NCBI GenBank assembly: GCA_045599805.1
Contig: JAZRWQ010000059.1
Location: 1 to 36,532 of the forward strand
DNA: 36,532 nt
Direction: 5' to 3'
Source: Eubacteriales bacterium
GTDB lineage: Bacteria; Bacillota; Clostridia; Oscillospirales; UMGS1783
The notes beneath the pieces were generated by a model, which had not been told where the DNA came from, did not search any database, and saw nothing but the letters and a program-made list of their open reading frames with translations. This document shows, in pieces, positions 12,226-28,211 of this stretch (positions are counted from its first letter, which is position 1; each line of letters begins with the position of its first letter). A program made the translations under genes and the position numbers.

Positions 12226-12918
12226 ATGGGAGTTTACGCAATAGCCGATCTGCATTTGTCGCTGGGCTCGGATAAGCCCATGGATGTCTTCGGCGGCAGA
12301 TGGCGCAATTATGTTGAAAAAATAAAAACAGGGTGGACCGAAACGGTTTCGGAAAACGATACCGTCATTATCCCCGGTGACGTAAGCTGGGCAGTAACCC
12401 AGGAAGAGCTTAAGCCCGACCTTGATTTTCTCGAATCACTTCCCGGCAAAAAGATTATCATGAAAGGCAACCACGATTACTGGTGGAGCACAATGAAAAA
12501 GCTTAATGAGTTTATAAGCTCATGCGGCTATAAAACGATATCGCTTCTCTTCAACAGCGCCGTTCAGGCGGAAAACATTGCCGTCTGCGGCTCGCGCGGC
12601 TGGGATATTTTTGCCGCCACCGGGCATGACGATAAAATAGTGCGTCGTGAAAACGGCAGACTTACCGTATCCTGCGAGCAGGCAATCGCACTCGGCGGCG
12701 AGCCGGTGGCATTCATGCACTATCCGCCCGTATCTCCGGCGAGCGTCAGAGATGAATTTATCGAGGTGCTTTTGAAATACGGCATAAAGCGCTGCTATTA
12801 CGGCCATATACATCACAGCGGCGCCGGCAGAGTATTCGAGGGCGAAAAGTTCGGTATAGCCTTTAAGCTTATCAGTGCAGATCAGCTCGATTTTATCCCC
12901 GAAAGAATAGACATATAA
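12226..12918 (+). CDS. Metallophosphoesterase (calcineurin-like phosphoesterase family)
   Basis: The motifs IADLHL, GDVSW, GNHDYWW and GHIH are the metal-ligand blocks of this superfamily. Confidence 0.8.
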   Translation: MGVYAIADLHLSLGSDKPMDVFGGRWRNYVEKIKTGWTETVSENDTVIIPGDVSWAVTQEELKPDLDFLESLPGKKIIMKGNHDYWWSTMKKLNEFISSCGYKTISLLFNSAVQAENIAVCGSRGWDIFAATGHDDKIVRRENGRLTVSCEQAIALGGEPVAFMHYPPVSPASVRDEFIEVLLKYGIKRCYYGHIHHSGAGRVFEGEKFGIAFKLISADQLDFIPERIDI

Positions 12919-12921
12919 ACG

Positions 12922-12955
12922 TAGCCTCGTTATTTTACGAGGCTATTATTTTACT
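12922..12955 (+). terminator. Intrinsic terminator after the metallophosphoesterase gene
   Basis: Stem TAGCCTCGT/ACGAGGCTA (12922-12930 with 12937-12945), 6-nt loop, then a T-rich tail. Confidence 0.7.
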
Positions 12956-13047
12956 TTGCTTTTGGTATTCTAAAATACCACAGAGCAATTGTGCACAAAG
13001 AAATAAAAAATTTTTAGAGAAATTTATAAAAAATATTAAAAAAAGTA

Positions 13048-13076
13048 TTGACAAATAAAAAAAGCTCTGCTATAAT
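13048..13076 (+). promoter_or_regulatory. Consensus sigma-70 promoter with an AT-rich upstream (UP-like) tract and no annotated gene downstream
   Basis: TTGACA (13048-13053), exactly 17 nt, TATAAT (13071-13076). Roughly 13000-13047 is almost pure A/T. Confidence 0.6.
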
Positions 13077-13230
13077 GAAGCCAAGATAAGAAACAAGACA
13101 AAATTCGAAAACCTCTCAGGAGAGAAAAGGGGTGGTTGTAATGACAGCGGAAATTGTCTACAGCCCCCGGCACGGGAAGTAAAGTGCAAGGGGGAAAACC
13201 AAAAAGTACAGTATAAAGGAGTTGTTAATT

Positions 13231-13293
13231 ATGAAGGTGATTAAAAAACCCTTTACGAATGACCGTAGGAGAATTATCAAAGCAAATCTATGA
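13231..13293 (+). CDS. Possible 20-aa micro-ORF (MKVIKKPFTNDRRRIIKANL) inside the orphan transcript
   Basis: ATG 13231 is preceded by AAAGGAG (13215-13221) at 9-nt spacing. The stop is TGA at 13291. Too short to judge coding potential. Confidence 0.25.
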   Translation: MKVIKKPFTNDRRRIIKANL

Positions 13294-13402
13294 AAGGATT
13301 GGTACGGTCCCATGTACAATTTAGGTTAATCCGAATAGAAGCCCCGAAATCATAGTTGAAGTCCAATGGACAAATATTAAAATGAAAAATAAATTTATTT
13401 AG

Positions 13403-13430
13403 AAAAGCCTCCGTTTTAACGGAGGCTTTT
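13403..13430. terminator. Bidirectional intrinsic terminator (orphan + transcript and the - strand zinc-ribbon gene)
   Basis: Stem GCCTCCGT/ACGGAGGC, flanked by AAAA on the left and TTTT on the right. Confidence 0.7.
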
Positions 13431-13512
13431 CAAGTTATCATGACATATTCATAAAAAACAGAACGGAGCAAGGTTTCCCCTGCTCCGGTAAGATCAGTTT
13501 GATTTGTAAAAA

Positions 13513-13791
13513 TCAGTTGTTCTCTTTCTGCTTTGCAAAGCAATCGCTGCAATAAACGGGTCTGTCTTCTCTGGGCTGGAAAGGAACCTTTGCTCCGCCG
13601 CCGCACATAGCGCAAGTAGCAGTAAAGAATTCTCTGTTAGCCTTGGAAGCGTTCTTTCTTGCAACTCTGCATTCTTTGCATCTCTGAGGCTCGTTCTGGA
13701 AGCCTTTTTCTGCATAGAATTCCTGTTCGCCTGCAGTGAAAATAAATTCTTTACCGCAGTCTTTGCAAATTAATGTCTTGTCCTCGTACAT
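13513..13791 (-). CDS. CxxC zinc-ribbon protein (CxxC-x17-CxxC domain type)
   Basis: CKDC...CKEC and then CAMC-x17-CSDC, counted by hand. GAGGGG Shine-Dalgarno upstream. Confidence 0.8.
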   Translation of the reverse strand: MYEDKTLICKDCGKEFIFTAGEQEFYAEKGFQNEPQRCKECRVARKNASKANREFFTATCAMCGGGAKVPFQPREDRPVYCSDCFAKQKENN

Positions 13792-13890
13792 GTTTTCCCC
13801 TCGCTTAGAATTGAAAAAAATTTTTTTTTACCCCGGACGGAATTGCACCGTCGTCTTAATACGTTTTGCTTATTAAACTACGTGGGTATA

Positions 13891-14409
13891 TTACAAAAGC
13901 TTTGAAAGCTTTTTTTTCGTTCGTGAAAGTGCATTGTCAACCGATTTCTCCGACTTGTGAAGTGCGGATGCTATATTCGCATAGGAGTAACCGTTAAGAT
14001 ATAGAGAAAGAACTTTTTTTTCGAAGTCCGAAAGATTGTCTTTAATAAGAGTTTTTATGTTCTGAAAATCCTCTGTCATCAGCGCCAGTTCATCGGGCCC
14101 CGGGGTAGTGGAAATCATGTTTGAGGAATCGTCATAATTGCAGCCGAAAGCGGTAGTATCCTTTGATATTTTACGCAAAGCGCTTATCATGGCGTTTCTT
14201 ATGCAGGTGTAGGCGTATGCATCAAAGGGAACGCCCCTGCCTGCGTCATATACCTTCGTGGCGCAGTAGAGCGCCAGCAAGCCTTCCTGCACAAGGTCGT
14301 CGGTATATTCACCGGCATGGAAGGATGCAGCGGCAGTTTTAATTCGGGGCATAAGCTCCGATAAAGCTTTGGCGAAATCAACGCCTTCTGTTATGGGGAT
14401 TTTACCCAT
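13891..14409 (-). CDS. Sigma-70-family RNA polymerase sigma factor (regions 2 and 4 only, ECF-sized)
   Basis: Region 2 is DLVQEGLLALYCATKVYD...FDAYAYTCIRNAM. The region 4 HTH is LNGYSYANIASALHKSEKSVDNALSRTKKKL. Confidence 0.85.
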   Translation of the reverse strand: MGKIPITEGVDFAKALSELMPRIKTAAASFHAGEYTDDLVQEGLLALYCATKVYDAGRGVPFDAYAYTCIRNAMISALRKISKDTTAFGCNYDDSSNMISTTPGPDELALMTEDFQNIKTLIKDNLSDFEKKVLSLYLNGYSYANIASALHKSEKSVDNALSRTKKKLSKLL

Positions 14410-21933: not shown

Positions 21934-22728
21934 ATGGAATTCAGTTATAATCTCACGGCAGAACGTGCCGTTACCGCGGCGGGCTACTGCCACTATAAGA
22001 GTCCGTCCAGACATCCCGACAGAATAATGGACTGCCATGATTTGATTTTTATGGTTGACGGCGAATGGGATATAGGGCAGGACGGGGAAAGCTTTTGTCT
22101 TCATACCGGCGACGTTATGATACTTTCCGCAGGGCATCATCACTATCCGACAGGACTTTGCGCAAAGGATACGAAAACGATATTTTTTCACTGCACTGCC
22201 GATGAAAGCGATTTTTTGCCGGGCGCAGCGTCGCTTCCCGTGATTATTTCCGCCTATCACACCCACCGTATCCGAAGGCTGTTTGATGATATTGTGTATT
22301 TCTATGCCACTCAAAGCAGTAACAGAGAGGATATTCTGTCTTCTCTTGTCAAGCTTGTTTTCTGCGAGTTATACAGTCTGACGCAAAGTGAAGCGGTTTC
22401 CGATCCGCTTGTGAATAAAACTATACGCATGTTTCAGGAAAACCCGTCGCGTTTTATAAGCGGAGATGAGCTTGCGAAGGAGTTTTCCGTTTCCGAGCGA
22501 ACTATCCGAAACAGTTTTGTTTCGGCTATGGGGAAAACCCCAATGCAGTTTCAGACCGAGCAAAAACTGCTTGCCATTCGCTCACGTCTTGTAAATGAAA
22601 AGGATATCACCTTAAGAGAGCTGGCGGAGGATTACGGCTTTTGCGATGAATTCTATTTAAGCAAGCTTTTCAAAAAACAGTTCGGGATATCTCCAGTCTC
22701 TTTCAGGAAAAACAATAAGAACAATTAA
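21934..22728 (+). CDS. AraC-family transcriptional regulator (cupin-like N-domain plus double HTH)
   Basis: C-terminal ELAKEFSVSERTIRNSF...LAEDYGFCDEFYLSKLFKKQFGISPVSFR matches the AraC HTH pair. Confidence 0.85.
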   Translation: MEFSYNLTAERAVTAAGYCHYKSPSRHPDRIMDCHDLIFMVDGEWDIGQDGESFCLHTGDVMILSAGHHHYPTGLCAKDTKTIFFHCTADESDFLPGAASLPVIISAYHTHRIRRLFDDIVYFYATQSSNREDILSSLVKLVFCELYSLTQSEAVSDPLVNKTIRMFQENPSRFISGDELAKEFSVSERTIRNSFVSAMGKTPMQFQTEQKLLAIRSRLVNEKDITLRELAEDYGFCDEFYLSKLFKKQFGISPVSFRKNNKNN

Positions 22729-22746
22729 AAAAAGAAGCGCCCTTTA
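22729..22746. repeat. Left arm of a split palindrome (ancestral bidirectional terminator)
   Basis: AAAAAGAAGCGCCCTTTA starts right after the AraC stop codon. It is the exact reverse complement of 27050-27067. Confidence 0.75.
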
Positions 22747-22814
22747 GCGCAGTGTTCATAAAACAGTAATACTGAAAATGAGCACTGTTGCTATCGGGTT
22801 GGCTAAGAAAAAGT

Positions 22815-22864
22815 AAAGCGTGATATTTCATACCATTAGGTGTGGAGTATTACGCTTTTTTCAT
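22815..22864. terminator. Hairpin with flanking A/T tracts near the left end of the island
   Basis: 11-bp stem AAAGCGTGATA/TATTACGCTTT with one G-U pair and a 22-nt loop, followed by a T run. Could terminate read-through from AraC and also the - strand ORF. Confidence 0.4.
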
Positions 22865-22865
22865 T

Positions 22866-23144
22866 TTATCTGCGTTTTCCTTTGCGGCCGCGTTGATTAG
22901 TGCCGGACTTTAATTTCTTTGAACGGTTCAGAGCCTTCATAAGAACAGTGAATTCTTCTGGCGACAGGCTCTTGTAGTCCAATCCAAGTTGATGACATAA
23001 GAGAAAAAGCTGTGTCTCTTTTGCGCTTCCTTTGAAATTGGTAGCTTCTTCAATCCCTTCTCGGATCGTATCTGCAACAGTTGTTTCCGGAGCGGTATCA
23101 AAATCCTTTGCGTGAGACAAGCGGATAACATGTTTTGCCGACAC
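22866..23144 (-). CDS. Hypothetical island protein (GTG start; possibly a gene fragment)
   Basis: The ORF has a basic C-terminal tail and no motif I recognise. The only start is GTG and I see no clear Shine-Dalgarno. Confidence 0.3.
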   Translation of the reverse strand: MSAKHVIRLSHAKDFDTAPETTVADTIREGIEEATNFKGSAKETQLFLLCHQLGLDYKSLSPEEFTVLMKALNRSKKLKSGTNQRGRKGKRR

Positions 23145-23189
23145 GCATAATGTGTTCGCCGGATGATGCGCTCGGAAAGGATGAATTTT

Positions 23190-23399
23190 ATGGATATCAG
23201 AAATGAGATCAAAGCTTATATCGTCCGTGAGGGCGTGACCATGAGCGAGGTTGTTGACCGCCTTGCTTATGAATATGACTGAAGCAGCAGTGTTCTAAAC
23301 CTGTCAGGCAAGCTTCGTCGTGGTTCTTTGCGCTATCAGGAGGCCATCGAGCTTGCAGATGTGCTGGGCTATGACATTGTCTGGCAGAAACGCAAATGA
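23190..23399 (+). pseudogene. XRE/HTH-like small regulator interrupted by an in-frame TGA
   Basis: ATG 23190 has AAAGGA upstream. The 69-codon frame is continuous apart from TGA at 23280-23282 (MDIRNEIKAYIVREGVTMSEVVDRLAYEYD*SSSVLNLSGKLRRGSLRYQEAIELADVLGYDIVWQKRK). From memory, relatives have Trp at this position. Confidence 0.55.
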
Positions 23400-23455
23400 G
23401 GTTATCGCTATGAAATCAGTTTTGAGAAAACGAGGTAAAAATGCCTATGGTTTGA

Positions 23456-24073
<618 letters not shown>

Positions 24074-24094
24074 GAGAGGCCTTTTTACAAGAAT

Positions 24095-24107
24095 GTGTAC
24101 TTTTCTG
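24095..24107. repeat. Left inverted repeat of the candidate invertible segment
   Basis: GTGTACTTTTCTG matches the reverse complement of 24225-24237 (GTGTACTTTACTG) at 12 of 13 positions, with a perfect 9-bp core. Confidence 0.4.
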
Positions 24108-24136
24108 CAAAAGTGCATAATACACCTATTTAACTT

Positions 24137-24165
24137 ATAATAGCATAATTCGACCTTCTCGTCAA
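24137..24165 (-). promoter_or_regulatory. Near-consensus promoter on the minus strand inside the candidate inverton
   Basis: Read on the - strand: TTGACG (24165-24160), 17 nt spacer, TATTAT (24142-24137) with a TGn extended -10. It currently points at the 3' end of the recombinase gene, away from the 24287 operon. Confidence 0.5.
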
Positions 24166-24224
24166 TATCTCCGAAGTAATATTTTTCGCTCTACAGCGAA
24201 GTTTCTGTGAGCAGTGCGGAATAA

Positions 24225-24237
24225 CAGTAAAGTACAC
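24225..24237. repeat. Right inverted repeat of the candidate invertible segment
   Basis: CAGTAAAGTACAC pairs with 24095-24107. It overlaps an AACAGTAA motif that also occurs at both island ends. Confidence 0.4.
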
Positions 24238-24286
24238 TTTTTAAAAATGATAGAACAATTCTATCAAAGAAGGGAGCGCATGTTCT

Positions 24287-24937
24287 ATGGATAACATTCA
24301 AGAACTGAAGAAACTTAAGGATTTACTTGATGAGGGTATTCTGACTCAGGAAGAATTTGATCAACAAAAGCGTAAATTATTAAGTGATGATGTGTCAGAT
24401 TCTGTTGATCAAAACAATGAACAGATTTCTGAAGTTGAAAAGCCTGTTAAGAAACCAATTAATAAGGCTATGTTAAAAAGAATCGGTATCATCGTTGGAG
24501 TGTTAGTTATACTTATTTGCGCAGTATTTGCTGGTAAAAATATTGTAAAACATAATCAGCAAAACAAGAGAGCCGACGCGCTTGAAATTGGAATTCAATC
24601 TATTATGAGTGACTATGGTATTTCACACTACGACGTAAGATATGTGGATTATCATTACGACGTGTACGCAGAGGGATTTGAATCTCTGACAAACGGTGAA
24701 GCATTAGAATGCTTAAAGGCTTTAGATGGGGTTTCTGTTGAAGATCCTTGCGGAGACGGCAAACTTGAATTTTATATGACTAATGTTCATCCGGGAATGG
24801 ATGTTGAATACTCTTATTGGAGAGTGTCCTCTGCGGCGGCTATGACGAATGAAATGTATGGTGGAATTGACAAAACGCCTGGCATCTACTGTAATAGAAG
24901 CGGATCGAGAAAATGTGTTTATGAATGTAAGAATTAA
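24287..24937 (+). CDS. SHOCT-domain protein: N-terminal SHOCT, single TM helix, Cys-containing C-terminal ectodomain
   Basis: LKKLKDLLDEGILTQEEFDQQKRKLL is a SHOCT-type motif and IGIIVGVLVILICAVFAG is the TM helix. GGGAG Shine-Dalgarno 10 nt upstream. Confidence 0.7.
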   Translation: MDNIQELKKLKDLLDEGILTQEEFDQQKRKLLSDDVSDSVDQNNEQISEVEKPVKKPINKAMLKRIGIIVGVLVILICAVFAGKNIVKHNQQNKRADALEIGIQSIMSDYGISHYDVRYVDYHYDVYAEGFESLTNGEALECLKALDGVSVEDPCGDGKLEFYMTNVHPGMDVEYSYWRVSSAAAMTNEMYGGIDKTPGIYCNRSGSRKCVYECKN

Positions 24938-24955
24938 GAGAGGATAGCATAAATA

Positions 24956-25573
24956 ATGAAGAGAAAGCTTACACTTGCATGTATAGTAATGCTCATAGTA
25001 GAAACAGTCTGCTTATTTATTCCATACTGCTTTGTTGAAGAATATTGGAAATATGAGGATTCTATCGTATATCATGGCCAATCCAGACTAATGAGGGAAA
25101 CTCCCGTTAGTATTTTCGGAATTTCTACTGCAACAGGAAAAGTATTAGCGATAATTCTCTTGATTTCATTATTAACCGCTGCTTTAGGATTTATAATGAC
25201 TTATGTCAAGAAACAAGAAAAGATTGGTAAATTCATCAATTTCGTGCCCTTGATTAATCTTGTTTTATTAGCTGTTTTTGCATTTTATGCATATGCCTTT
25301 GCGGAGAATGATACAGTATACGCACGATTTGAATGGAATATTAATTGGTTGTTCTATATCATCATTACACTTCAGATCGTTACTTGTATCTTTGGCCTGT
25401 TACTTCAATTTGAAAAGGAAGAGAAAGTCAAGACAATTCCGAGCAAGGTTGAAAACATAAATTCTATTGAGAGTGCTGCAGAAAAAGTAAGGCAGTATGA
25501 AGAGTTACTTGATTCTGGAGTTATTTCGCAGGAAGAGTTTGAAACCAAGAAAAAACAGATCCTCGGTCTGTAA
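24956..25573 (+). CDS. Four-TM membrane protein with C-terminal SHOCT domain
   Basis: Four hydrophobic helices, then VRQYEELLDSGVISQEEFETKKKQILGL (SHOCT-type) at the extreme C-terminus. Confidence 0.7.
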   Translation: MKRKLTLACIVMLIVETVCLFIPYCFVEEYWKYEDSIVYHGQSRLMRETPVSIFGISTATGKVLAIILLISLLTAALGFIMTYVKKQEKIGKFINFVPLINLVLLAVFAFYAYAFAENDTVYARFEWNINWLFYIIITLQIVTCIFGLLLQFEKEEKVKTIPSKVENINSIESAAEKVRQYEELLDSGVISQEEFETKKKQILGL

Positions 25574-25635
25574 ATGAAAGTAATTATGGGAGGTCGCAAG
25601 TAATTGCCCTCCCATTTTCTATATTGGAGGTATTT

Positions 25636-26247
25636 ATGGCTGGGATGACAGGCTTCATACATAGTTGCGTTGATGCCAAGCTTGAGAAGGCACCACATCA
25701 TTTAACATTGAAGGAATCCGGTTTTACAGATGATCAAATAAAAGTCCTATGGGATTTTTATGTATCACGGTCATTTGCTGCTGCCACCGGAAATCCAATA
25801 TCATTAGAGACTTGTGGCTGGCATGATACTCAGAGTAAAACTGATGGTTTTCCGGCATTAGAAAGTGTACTTTGCTCTACAGCCGGATTATCATCGTTCT
25901 GCATTATCAGAAATAAAACCATTAAAGATACCTTGAGTCAGATGGATTTGAGCAACGAGCGGATATGTGTATCTCATCCAAGAGCTGTGTTAACACAAAA
26001 CTTCACATATGAGTCGGATGAAAATGAAACTGTGAAAATTAAGTCTGGCGAAAGTCGTATAAATGCAATATTCCGTCATATTCGAAACTCTTTTGCACAC
26101 GGGAATACATATTTTTTCCCTACAGGGAATTGTTTGCTGATTGATAAAGATGGATCAAAAACGACCGCAGCAATTCTTGTCCCTAAGCAAGCGTTATGGG
26201 ACTGGATATCTATTGTTGATAAAAATAAAGCATATTACGATTTATGA
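25636..26247 (+). CDS. Hypothetical protein with an Rx4H HEPN-like motif (candidate RNase/abortive-infection effector)
   Basis: INAIFRHIRNSFAHGN contains R-N-S-F-A-H (Rx4H), in an IRNxxAHG context typical of several HEPN families. I chose ATG 25636, with GGAGG upstream, over TTG 25624. Confidence 0.55.
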   Translation: MAGMTGFIHSCVDAKLEKAPHHLTLKESGFTDDQIKVLWDFYVSRSFAAATGNPISLETCGWHDTQSKTDGFPALESVLCSTAGLSSFCIIRNKTIKDTLSQMDLSNERICVSHPRAVLTQNFTYESDENETVKIKSGESRINAIFRHIRNSFAHGNTYFFPTGNCLLIDKDGSKTTAAILVPKQALWDWISIVDKNKAYYDL

Positions 26248-26254
26248 ATTCTGC

Positions 26255-26290
26255 GCGATCAACTGTGAAAGGTTGATCGCTTTTTTATTT
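26255..26290 (+). terminator. Strong intrinsic terminator closing the three-gene operon
   Basis: 9-bp stem GCGATCAAC/GTTGATCGC (26255-26263 with 26272-26280), 8-nt loop, then TTTTTTATTT. Confidence 0.8.
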
Positions 26291-26308
26291 GGAGGAGGTG
26301 ATGCTCAT

Positions 26309-26581
26309 ATGGGAGAAAGAAAAATGCCCGAGTCTTTGGAAGCCCTGATGGAAGAAAAACAGAACGCCGAAGCAGAGCTTAACTACTGGGCTCATAAAGA
26401 AAAAATCCTTCGTCATCAGATAAAGGATCTCGCAAGAAAGGAACGAACTCACAGACTTTGTGTACGCGCTGGGATGCTAGAAAGCTTCCTTAAGGAGCCA
26501 GAACTGTTATCGGATGATCAGGTAATGGAACTTTTGAAAATTGCATGCAGAGAGCGCAAAACAGATTGCAGCGAACCGTAA
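26309..26581 (+). CDS. DUF3847-like coiled-coil protein of conjugative elements, probably 3'-altered by a deletion junction
   Basis: KERTHRLCVRAGMLESFLKEPELLSDDQVMELLK matches my memory of DUF3847 proteins. GGAGGAGG Shine-Dalgarno precedes ATG 26309. The last ~12 codons overlap the recombinase-fragment frame. Confidence 0.5.
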   Translation: MGERKMPESLEALMEEKQNAEAELNYWAHKEKILRHQIKDLARKERTHRLCVRAGMLESFLKEPELLSDDQVMELLKIACRERKTDCSEP

Positions 26582-26984
26582 GGCACTTGAACGAAGTGAG
26601 AAGCGTATCTCGGAGCTTAAGCGCCTGTTCATTAAGATTTACGAGGATAACGCAAGCGGTAAACTGAGTGATGAGCGTTTTGACATGATGAGTCAGACCT
26701 ATGAGGCTGAACAGAAAGAACTGGAAGCTGAGGTCATCCGCCTACAGAAAGAAATCGAAGTACAGGAAACACAGATTCAAAACATTGAGAAGTTTATTCA
26801 GAAATCCAGCCAGTATGTCGGCATCGAGGAACTTACATCCTATGTCCTTCATGAGCTGGTAAAGGCCATCTATGTAGATGCACCGGATAAGTCCAGCGGC
26901 AAGCGCAGACAGCATATCCACATCCAGTATGATGGACTGGGCTTCATCCCTCTGAATGAGCTTTTAACAAGTGAAAAGGCGTGA
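26541..26984 (+). pseudogene. C-terminal fragment (DUF4368-type tail) of a large serine recombinase; the catalytic N-terminus is missing
   Basis: SAKQIAANRKALERSEKRISELKRLFIKIYEDNASGKLSDERFDMMSQTYE...ELVKAIYV...IHIQY is the coiled-coil/C-terminal region of TndX-like recombinases. The frame is closed by TGA at 26535. No resolvase domain lies upstream. Confidence 0.65.
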
Positions 26985-27011
26985 CCAAAGCCACGCCTTC
27001 CCATCTTTTTT
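26976..27011 (+). terminator. Hairpin with a downstream T run after the recombinase fragment
   Basis: Stem AAGGCGTG/CACGCCTT (26976-26983 with 26992-26999). The T6 run starts 5 nt after the stem. Confidence 0.4.
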
Positions 27012-27049
27012 CAATTCTTAAACATTTACTGTTTTACGACGCACCGCCA

Positions 27050-27067
27050 TAAAGGGCGCTTCTTTTT
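27050..27067. repeat. Right arm of the split palindrome (ancestral bidirectional terminator)
   Basis: TAAAGGGCGCTTCTTTTT is the exact reverse complement of 22729-22746. It overlaps the ADH stop codon (27066-27068). Confidence 0.75.
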
Positions 27068-28211
27068 ATTTACCGTATTTATCAAGGGTTTTGTAAACTG
27101 TATCAAATACGCTGTCGCTGAATTTTTCTCCGCCGTCATATACCGATGCGTGAATGTTTTTGCCTTTTGCCGCTTTTGCATACAGGGTTGCAACGGTTTT
27201 TTCATCACGGGGCAGGGAGGGCAGTACCGAATAGAAAAGCCTTTCCAATTCATCAACGTCGGTGCCCATTGTATTCAGCATCCTGTCCGTATCTTCCTTA
27301 TAGTCAATGCTGTGAAGTCTTATAAATTCGGGCAGGAAATAGGCGCAGGCAAAACCGTGGCAGGTTCCGCATTCGGATGTGATTGCATAGCCTGCGCTGT
27401 GAGGGAAGCAGGTACCGGAAAGCTCAATGGTGATACCCGCAAGTATTGAACCGTAAAGCAGTTTTTCCCGATCTTCAAGGGTAAGCTCTTCGGAAAATGC
27501 CTTTTTCAAAGCAGGCCAGATAAGCTCAAGCCCTGCCAGCGCAAAGGTTCTTACAAAGATGCCGCTGCCCTTTTTGAAATAGCCCTCAAAGCAATGAGCC
27601 ACAGCATCAATTCCCGTAGAAACGGTAACGTTTTTCGGAAGACTTAAGGTGTATTTCGGATCGCAGAAGGTAACAACGGGGCAGGACGCCTTGTTGCCCC
27701 AGCCTCTTTTAAGAGAGTTTTTGCCCTCTCCCAAGGTCATTACCGAAAAGGACGTGACCTCGCTTCCCGTTCCCGCGGTAGTGCCGCAGGCGAATACCGG
27801 AAGCGGCTTGTTCGGTACTTTCTTTGCGTACAGATCGTCAACGGAAATATCGGGATTTACCGCGAATAAGGCAACGGCCTTTGCCGCATCCATCGGCGAG
27901 CCGCCGCCAATGCCCAAAACGCCGTCGGCACCAAATTCAACGCATTCCTTTGCGGCATTGCTGCAGGCGTCTATATGAGGGTTTTCTACAACCCTGTCGT
28001 ATATCTTGTATTCGATGCCGATGCTGTCAAAAAGTTCCGTAAAATCGTCAAGAGCGCCGCTTTTTTTAGCGGAGGATTTCCCCGTCATTATAAAAACTTT
28101 TGAGGCGTAATCCTTTATTATAGCGCCCTTTTCCTTTACGCAGTCCTTGCCCGAAATGATGTTCCAGCGCTCGTTGAGGCTGAAATTGAACGGTAATTTA
28201 CTTTGTGCCAT
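27066..28211 (-). CDS. Iron-containing (group III) alcohol dehydrogenase
   Basis: [13 protein letters not shown] motif, GTGSEVT, and metal-ligand His region ([16 protein letters not shown]). I chose the start at [10 protein letters not shown] (28211). This gives a 381-aa product and a 14-nt overlap with upp. The longer listed ORF would overlap 131 nt of the upp coding sequence. Confidence 0.85.

Follow-up and report, generated by a model that had tools for sequence, protein, structure and literature searches.

The 36,532-nucleotide contig JAZRWQ010000059.1 of a Eubacteriales bacterium (assembly GCA_045599805.1), hereafter called the window, contains a gene for a small serine recombinase which is followed by a pair of short inverted repeats and, on the same strand, by two genes for SHOCT-domain proteins and a third gene. 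From the sequence of the window it had been proposed that the repeats bracket an invertible promoter between the recombinase gene and the downstream operon, lying in the OFF orientation. Together with the comparison of related loci reported here, the arrangement is best read as a promoter inversion switch (inverton) that is OFF in the window, to which we assign a probability of about 85%. Throughout, ON denotes that the promoter faces the downstream genes and OFF that it faces the recombinase gene. The features of the locus are the following, with protein lengths in amino acids (aa).

23465–24073, + strand: small serine recombinase, presumed invertase, 202 aa; Pfam Resolvase (PF00239) over residues 4–147, E = 6.8e-31
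24084–24111: predicted left crossover site, TTTACAAGAATGT-GT-ACTTTTCTGCAAA, central GT at 24097–24098; 26/28 to the family consensus; contains the left arm of the repeat
24099–24233: predicted invertible segment of 135 bp between the central dinucleotides; centres 137 bp apart
24221–24248: predicted right crossover site, + strand ATAACAGTAAAGT-AC-ACTTTTTAAAAAT, central AC at 24234–24235; 18/28 to the consensus; contains the right arm
24287–24937, + strand: first switch-controlled gene, 216 aa, N-terminal SHOCT domain (Pfam E = 2.5e-9); a 93% homolog, P0121, lies behind the switch in the related loci L144 and L145
24956–25573, + strand: second switch-controlled gene, 205 aa, C-terminal SHOCT domain (Pfam E = 2.4e-9)
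25624–26247, + strand: third gene of the unit, 207-aa element-backbone protein, weakly HEPN-like, with an RNSFAH (Rx4H) motif
26255–26290, + strand: strong intrinsic terminator-like hairpin, 10-bp stem followed by TTTTTTATTT

Recombinase, crossover sites and promoter

The gene upstream of the repeat encodes a full-length Resolvase protein in which the catalytic residues R9, S11, D68, R69 and R72 are intact, and which departs from the majority of 96 close homologs at six positions only. The C-terminal 55 residues look like a helix-turn-helix (HTH) by eye and gave no match to Pfam HTH models, and the translation has the build of a small serine recombinase, with a catalytic domain and a short presumptive DNA-binding region at the C-terminus. 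The enzyme had been labelled Hin/resolvase-type; the sequence is Sin/resolvase-like and not Hin/Gin-like; the best solved relatives are Sin/Bin3 (4.6e-31) and the gamma-delta resolvase (1.6e-21), followed by Gin (3e-17). The recombinase passed no NCBIfam equivalog model, and the model for Mpi (NF009949) gave 52.3 bits where the cutoff is 272. From these comparisons the protein would be an enzyme that acts like a DNA invertase yet stands outside the Hin/Gin subfamily and the Mpi family. It has thousands of relatives, more than 100 of them at 86–98% identity in gut metagenomes, and more than 577 species-representative genomes hold one. Exact-protein look-ups returned no record of the window recombinase, of the first SHOCT protein or of the flanking AraC-type regulator.

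The two arms of the repeat, GTGTACTTTTCTG at 24095–24107 and CAGTAAAGTACAC at 24225–24237, are present as predicted, complementary at 12 of 13 positions with 117 bp between them, and the repeat finder lengthens the match to 14/16 (24092–24107 and 24225–24240). The odds of a chance match in the window had been put at a few percent, which was too optimistic, since the window contains eight repeats as good as this one (13 nt, no more than one mismatch, arms 30–300 bp apart) and shuffled windows about 3.5. In the 213-bp intergenic region itself an equally good repeat appeared in only 1.65% of shuffles, and a 16-nt site motif occurs three times in the window with 0.49 expected. By itself the repeat is unconvincing, and it is the position and the comparative evidence that make it real.

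That evidence comes from the DNA around three close relatives, around 80 relatives at 72–83% identity from species-representative genomes, and from 46 metagenome contigs sharing the left junction. In all, 121 loci have the repeat pair, and their recombinases are 72–100% identical. In these loci, which lie in many contexts and may or may not have mobilization genes, the repeat is kept directly past the recombinase stop codon; the left site of the window begins 11 nt past that codon. Alignment of the 80 unique site pairs gave the consensus dyad TTTACAGRAAnGT-GT-ACnTTYCTGTAAA with an asymmetric central GT. The sequence TTTACAGRAAnGT around the invariant GT is common to all four half-site classes, and the most degenerate class family-wide is the cargo-side outer one. 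The 13-bp arms are accordingly the core of two 28-bp dyad sites, each arm consisting of one inner half-site and the core, and this layout (12–13 + 2 + 12–13 bp) is typical of the crossover sites of small serine recombinases. As in Hin, Gin, Cin and Pin systems there are two inverted half-sites, a 2-bp asymmetric core, and two sites that lie in inverted repeat.

Position 10 of the repeat shows a T/C polymorphism that swaps sides upon flipping in three independent ON/OFF pairs, and the point of exchange must therefore lie within the outer GTGTACTTT, which fits the central GT; cleavage is predicted at exactly the central GT/AC. Alignments of flipped loci to the window end exactly at 24107. The arms co-vary beside the core, as in GTGTACCTT/AAGGTACAC and GTGTAGGTT/AACCTACAC, with a concordance of 0.85 against 0.42 expected (none of 500 shuffles reached 0.85), and the repeat variants follow recombinase divergence across the relatives. 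Centre-to-centre distances cluster at 113–118, 127, 134–140 and 145–148 bp, equal to 11, 12, 13 and 14 helical turns, with a mean resultant length of 0.79 at a period of 10.5–10.75 bp among loci that are not phylogenetically independent. This ladder, with rungs at about 116, 127, 137 and 147 bp, hints that the two sites of so tight a loop have to keep a helical phase, and is suggestive rather than proven.

Within the segment, the minus-strand promoter that had been pointed out, TTGACG-17-(TGc)TATTAT at 24165–24137, has 10 of 12 consensus positions plus the TG and is the top promoter-like site in the region 23000–24700. On the + strand there is, again as described, only a TATAAT at 24136–24141 with a poor -35 region, GTGCAT, at 24113–24118. 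In the present orientation the predicted transcription start is located about 57 nt beyond the recombinase stop codon and is aimed at the 3' end of that gene, and the terminator scan found no minus-strand terminator between the two. After inversion the promoter would by calculation occupy about 24167–24195 on the + strand, so that transcripts would have a 5' untranslated region of about 85 nt in front of the start codon (ATG at 24287). The placement is constant among the relatives: in 110 of the 112 oriented ones, 40–44 bp separate the -10 region from the outer end of the downstream repeat, across at least three unrelated interior sequence families (of about 104 and 125 bp). Family-wide, the two strands have mean promoter scores of 11.1 and 8.6. 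As judged from these matches the segment would carry a promoter on one strand only, able to read out to a gene as in other invertons.

The segment also holds a palindrome, TTCGC-N4-6-GCGAA with T/A-run flanks (24186–24201 in the window), that is conserved in all interiors of about 125 bp and lies about 15–45 bp upstream of the -35 region in promoter orientation; it might bind a protein or act in the manner of an UP element. An orientation-specific terminator formed by a hairpin and T-run at 24184–24201 was considered and dropped, with folding z-scores of -1.0 in the window and -0.2 in locus L005. A third site-like match, AAAGTGTACTTTGCTC at 25862–25877, 18/28 to the consensus and in direct orientation to the left site, is located inside the HEPN-like gene. 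As a recombinase site it was rejected and is probably a chance match, since it is not conserved in L006, L114, L144 and L145 (GTGCACTTGCATC). A short inverted repeat, TTTGATCAACAAA / TCTGTTGATCAAA with 30–32 bp between the arms, is found inside the first SHOCT gene (24356–24413).

Orientation among relatives and the controlled genes

Both orientations of the segment exist in nature at the same locus, between flanking inverted repeats. Among the 121 loci 36 are ON, 76 are OFF and nine are unclear, and the window falls in the OFF class as had been proposed. When loci are grouped into alleles by their cargo flank, the groups contain 6 ON and 6 OFF, 12 ON and 13 OFF, and 1 of each. The clearest pair is L004 and L005, which have the same recombinase protein and flanks that are identical at 600 of 600 positions on each side; the 143-bp unit of L004 matches the reverse complement of that of L005 at 142 of 143 positions and its direct sequence at 56. 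A second clean inversion concerns the allele of the window itself and is found in two sibling SRA runs. The segment of L144 (run SRR23311179), which is OFF, matches the window directly at 123/143, and that of L145 (run SRR23311181), which is ON, matches its reverse complement at 123/143 with the same cargo-side flank as L144, the two sharing the first cargo protein P0121, 93% identical to that of the window. Related loci are thus found in both orientations rather than in a single one, and the reading of the locus as an invertible promoter is upheld. Misassembly is implausible because the repeat of 13–17 bp is shorter than assembler k-mers. The exact cargo-side junction of the window had no match in metagenomes, the nearest relatives differing by one base (AAAAACGATAG against AAAAATGATAG).

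Many of the contigs end in the switch or at most about 100 bp from it, and many recombinase contigs are merely 1–2 kb long (L115, L136, L126, L141, L111, L017 and L108; L042, L055, L059, L052, L071 and L047). Breaks of this type arise in assembly if a sample contains the two orientations side by side, or more than one cargo variant. The enrichment of contig ends is weak, about 7 of 64 where about 3 are expected.

The adjacent recombinase most likely catalyses the inversion, since it is invariably adjacent, the site type fits and the site variants track its divergence. In the mechanism we propose, the 202-aa protein would most likely bind as dimers to the two 28-bp sites, which lie inverted and 137 bp apart, and by analogy to the biochemistry of serine recombinases the bound dimers would synapse into a tetramer. 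The tetramer would then cut both sites at the central GT/AC, turn one half by 180 degrees and religate, leaving the 135-bp segment flipped. In the resulting ON state transcription from the promoter would cover both SHOCT genes and the weakly HEPN-like gene, as far as the terminator. More generally, recombinase and switch would form a portable module that places very different genes under ON/OFF control, often on integrative mobilizable elements.

The downstream genes had been described as a SHOCT/HEPN operon. Pfam supports the SHOCT domains of the first two products, of which the 205-aa protein looks like a membrane protein from the hydrophobic stretches in its translation. The HEPN assignment of the third is weak, with PF18736 (HEPN pEK499_p136) matching at E = 0.057 and 13.6 bits, below the cutoff of 26.6; a homolog in L001 reaches E = 8e-5 and 22.8 bits, also below it. 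The 207-aa gene is conserved ahead of a DUF3847 gene in L001, L006 and L144. With a terminator after the third gene the controlled unit should therefore be 24287–26247, and no better internal promoter was found downstream of the switch. For the three cargo genes of the window PADLOC gave no match, and otherwise a single marginal match to LeoBC, for a protein of a Band_7 operon; NCBIfam gave nothing useful on cargo, and Rfam showed no RNA family in 22500–27200. A SHOCT gene pair with 54% identity occurs as a chromosomal two-gene module beside greA in L146–L155; no recombinase was called in the stretches compared there, and several of these contigs begin 470–534 bp before the first gene.

Cargo genes of the relatives without exception read in the direction of the ON promoter, and the cargo begins 3–250 bp past the right site. 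It includes surface proteins of 1000–2150 aa (BspA-type leucine-rich repeat and S-layer homology proteins), restriction-modification genes (a PLD-SNF2 helicase with an Eco57I-type methylase, and Eco57I with ResIII), a C5 DNA methylase, and UDP-glucose dehydrogenase, MBOAT, YfhO, TadZ, FHA-vWA, FkbH, Band_7 with zinc-ribbon, and SHOCT proteins. The surface proteins, the restriction-modification genes, the C5 methylase, UDP-glucose dehydrogenase, MBOAT, YfhO, TadZ and FkbH are of classic phase-variable classes. Identical switch junctions, with recombinases at 83%, are present in L018, L019 and L020, which belong to Ruminococcus turbiniformis, a Collinsella metagenome-assembled genome (MAG; Actinomycetota) and Lactonifactor longoviformis. 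Further relatives occur in Megasphaera and Gastranaerophilales MAGs (L054, L064). These occurrences suggest recent horizontal transfer across families or phyla, or else binning errors.

The carrying element and alternative explanations

The switch lies in the remnant of an integrative mobilizable element, of which the following parts are present besides those listed above.

22745–27002, + strand: integrative mobilizable element remnant carrying the switch; homology to elements at different chromosomal sites starts at about 22745
22866–23144, - strand: C-terminal remnant of an HTH regulator (Xre/RstR-like), which is 272 aa when intact in relatives; the remnant has no Pfam match
23190–23399, + strand: 69-aa open reading frame (ORF), a pseudogene in the window, Trp31 to stop (AYEYD*SSSV against AYEYDWSSSV in L004 and L006)
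26309–26581 (start approximate), + strand: DUF3847 gene, mobilization accessory, outside the controlled unit; Pfam E = 3.2e-20
26541–26984, + strand: C-terminal fragment of a large serine recombinase (integrase); Pfam DUF4368, E = 6.7e-19

In the close relatives the gene order is a divergent HTH regulator, the 69-aa ORF, the recombinase, the switch, variable cargo, the weakly HEPN-like gene, DUF3847 and a MobA/MobL relaxase, and the far end is taken up by a large serine recombinase. The unit is inserted beside different chromosomal genes, and from this order and the varied insertion sites it is an integrative mobilizable element. The intact HTH regulator matches HTH_3/HTH_19 and RstR. The 69-aa ORF has a weak match to DUF6471 (E = 5e-4, below the cutoff), and its product could be an accessory factor or a regulator of the switch. 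Only 18 of the 80 distant relatives have the ORF beside them and 22 the HTH gene, and the minimal cassette is therefore the recombinase with the switch.

The window copy has lost parts at both ends. Positions 22745–23127 align to 1664–2047 of L004 and the alignment then jumps to about 3164, so that about 1.1 kb is missing at about 23127–23133; the junction lies at a short repeated CGG(A)TA(A/T)C motif. At the other end the homology to L006 stops at 26546, where the relatives run on into the MobA/MobL gene, and 26598–27002 corresponds to the 3' end of the integrase region of L084, in which 19141–19545 matches the DUF4368 fragment at 75%. The element thus lacks the relaxase and the greater part of the large serine recombinase. 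A simple scan gave no + strand promoter for the recombinase operon, even in the intact intergenic region of L004.

Several points weigh against a working inversion switch at this locus. The ON/OFF contrasts are all between assemblies of different samples, with no two contigs of one allele from the same assembly, and switching within one clone is presumed from them. About a quarter of the distant relatives have no recognisable repeat pair, partly owing to truncated contigs. The enzyme is by sequence nearer to the resolvases Sin and gamma-delta than to known invertases, and it is adjacency and site type that tie it to the inversion. For the synapse of a serine recombinase a loop of 137 bp is very short, and no accessory factor or enhancer was identified, with no dedicated enhancer search made. 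The cargo-side half-site of the right site is degenerate, with 18/28 for the site as a whole, and the activity of the promoter is presumed from its consensus match only. In the window itself the deletion has removed the N-terminal two-thirds of the HTH gene and most of the divergent regulatory region, the 69-aa ORF has a premature stop, and with the element decayed and the switch OFF this copy may no longer flip.

The last points lead to the alternative that the family is a real switch and the window copy a relic frozen in the OFF state, the recombinase being no longer made or left without a partner after loss of the regulator, of the 69-aa ORF and possibly of the promoter that served the recombinase operon. 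It would be favoured by the stop in the 69-aa ORF, by the deletion, which spares just about 62 bp upstream of that ORF, by the loss of relaxase and integrase, and by the lack of a credible promoter just ahead of the recombinase gene, as the sole + strand match (23422–23451) would put the start inside the ribosome-binding site. However, the recombinase ORF is full length with its catalytic residues intact, the invariant core is kept in both crossover sites, and neither the 69-aa ORF nor the HTH gene is obligatory, each being missing in the majority of the distant relatives with a switch. The intact intergenic region of L004 is likewise without a + strand promoter match. We consider a frozen copy unlikely, although it deserves to be taken seriously.

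The flip might instead serve mainly to regulate the recombinase or the element, with the OFF promoter firing antisense into the recombinase gene and control of the cargo being secondary. No minus-strand terminator would stop such transcription, and OFF is twice as frequent as ON in the assemblies, as expected if the OFF state dampens its own reversal; a precedent for orientation-dependent control of a switch recombinase is fimE of Escherichia coli. Against this stand the cargo, which is always co-oriented with the ON promoter just past the right site and of classic phase-variable classes, and the terminator that, in the window, stands between the controlled unit and the mobilization genes. The explanation is improbable as the main role, and the two roles are compatible.

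An enzyme acting in trans, either the large serine recombinase of the element or one of the host, might also invert the segment, in which case the adjacent protein would be a resolvase of the mobile element. Its likeness to Sin/Bin3 and gamma-delta would agree with this, and many copies share their element with a gene for a large serine recombinase. However, the left site follows directly upon the stop codon of the small recombinase in all 121 loci and in varied contexts, the dyad layout is that typical of small serine recombinases, and the repeat variants follow the divergence of this protein. A resolvase would act on res sites, whereas the sites here are inverted, the product is an inversion, and no set of direct-repeat accessory sites was seen. 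We regard an enzyme in trans as quite improbable. That the repeat is a chance match beside an ordinary transposon resolvase, with no inversion at all, would agree with the number of such repeats in shuffled windows and with the hairpin inside the segment not being significant, but is contradicted by the clean inversions between identical flanks, the conserved co-varying sites and the fixed promoter placement, and can practically be dismissed.

Elsewhere in the window, a low-GC intergenic stretch of about 1 kb (12918–13891) with no ORF of 120 aa or more contains a second 12/13 inverted repeat, at 13619–13631 and 13745–13757 with a spacer of 113 bp. This is probably due to chance, with no promoter-like site between the arms and no recombinase nearby. 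The same stretch has a perfect extended -10 promoter, TTGACA-17-TGnTATAAT (12/12), on the + strand at 13048–13076 and a minus-strand terminator at 13487–13464, with no Rfam family at gathering score; the promoter may drive a small ORF or a small RNA.

Relation to known systems and significance

The device is of a known kind, functionally like Hin/hix and the Mpi-controlled promoters of Bacteroides fragilis, in a family for which we found no published description. It resembles Hin/hix of Salmonella, and Gin, Cin and Pin, in having a small serine recombinase next to an invertible segment; the crossover sites have two inverted half-sites of about 12–13 bp with an asymmetric 2-bp core, so that the visible repeat is a half-site plus the core, and, as in Hin, the promoter in the segment reads outward in one orientation only. 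The segment flipped by Hin is about 1 kb long and contains the hin gene itself, and the reaction depends on an enhancer bound by Fis (PMC3798978). In contrast, the segments of the present family are 113–148 bp, exclude the recombinase gene and are found in Clostridia hosts. To our knowledge Fis is not found in Clostridia, and no Fis-type enhancer is therefore expected in these hosts.

Mpi of Bacteroides fragilis is likewise a serine-type recombinase that flips short promoter segments in a gut anaerobe; these are about 200 bp and control surface structures (polysaccharide), and the inversion of promoter segments by this serine invertase was reportedly described by Coyne et al. in 2003 (cited in PMC11602134). 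Mpi acts in trans on many dispersed promoters, whereas every switch of the present family is accompanied by a recombinase gene of its own, directly upstream. The closest solved relatives are resolvases of the Sin/beta type from Gram-positive plasmids and transposons (Tn552 Bin3), which are 200-aa small serine recombinases of Firmicutes. These resolvases delete between direct res sites with accessory sites, whereas here there are two single inverted dyads and inversion is observed. Sin uses the host DNA-bending protein HU/Hbsu instead of Fis, and bending of this type would also suit the tight 137-bp loop.

Within the Clostridia, the RecV switches of Clostridioides difficile (cwpV, flgB, cmrRST and pdcB) are short invertible segments in front of surface, motility and signalling operons (PMC2784873, PMC5386303, PMC5903667). 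They are thus similar as short invertible regulatory segments in a member of this class, but RecV belongs to the tyrosine recombinases and serves several loci in trans, and some of its switches act by termination instead of a promoter. The element IME_Rho_tet of gut Bacillota is an integrative mobilizable element with a large serine recombinase and a relaxase (PMC12904643). The elements of the relatives are like it and like Tn4451 in carrying cargo, a relaxase with an accessory gene and a large serine recombinase at one end, at varied insertion sites. Neither a small serine recombinase nor promoter inversion is described for IME_Rho_tet (PMC12904643), whereas in the present elements an invertible promoter precedes the cargo slot. 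A description of the recombinase and site family was not found in the literature, although members may be contained, uncharacterised, in generic inverton surveys (hCom2 groups 125 and 139; DeepInverton, PMC11602134). The repeat motif was not found in those parts of the hCom2 supplements that were searched (PMC11892184).

Most of what has been worked out on phase variation in the gut concerns Bacteroides and C. difficile. An inverton survey gave low counts in commensal Clostridia, with a median of 3 per genome (PMC11892184), and few enzymes have been assigned to their sites. The locus in the window supplies a testable pairing, namely a 202-aa serine recombinase, a 28-bp site with its presumptive crossover dinucleotide, and a promoter at a fixed position. 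Tentatively, and with somewhat less than even confidence, we propose that the cassette is an uncharacterised and very widespread family of portable phase-variation adaptors of gut Clostridia that spills into assemblies of Collinsella, Megasphaera and Gastranaerophilales. If this is true, any cargo in the downstream slot would come under stochastic ON/OFF control on integrative mobilizable elements, and a Sin-like enzyme that inverts loops of 11–14 turns would imply a synapse geometry or a bending factor unlike the Fis/enhancer invertasome. The same cassette is found ahead of surface, restriction-modification, pilus and envelope genes, on elements that pass from species to species. Should the family behave in this way, it would explain part of the strain heterogeneity and of the assembly fragmentation in gut metagenomes, and horizontally acquired traits would come already under bet-hedging control. 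It would also offer a compact (<1 kb) Gram-positive inversion module for synthetic memory circuits, and the ladder of about 10.5 bp would give a handle on loop closure shorter than the persistence length of DNA.

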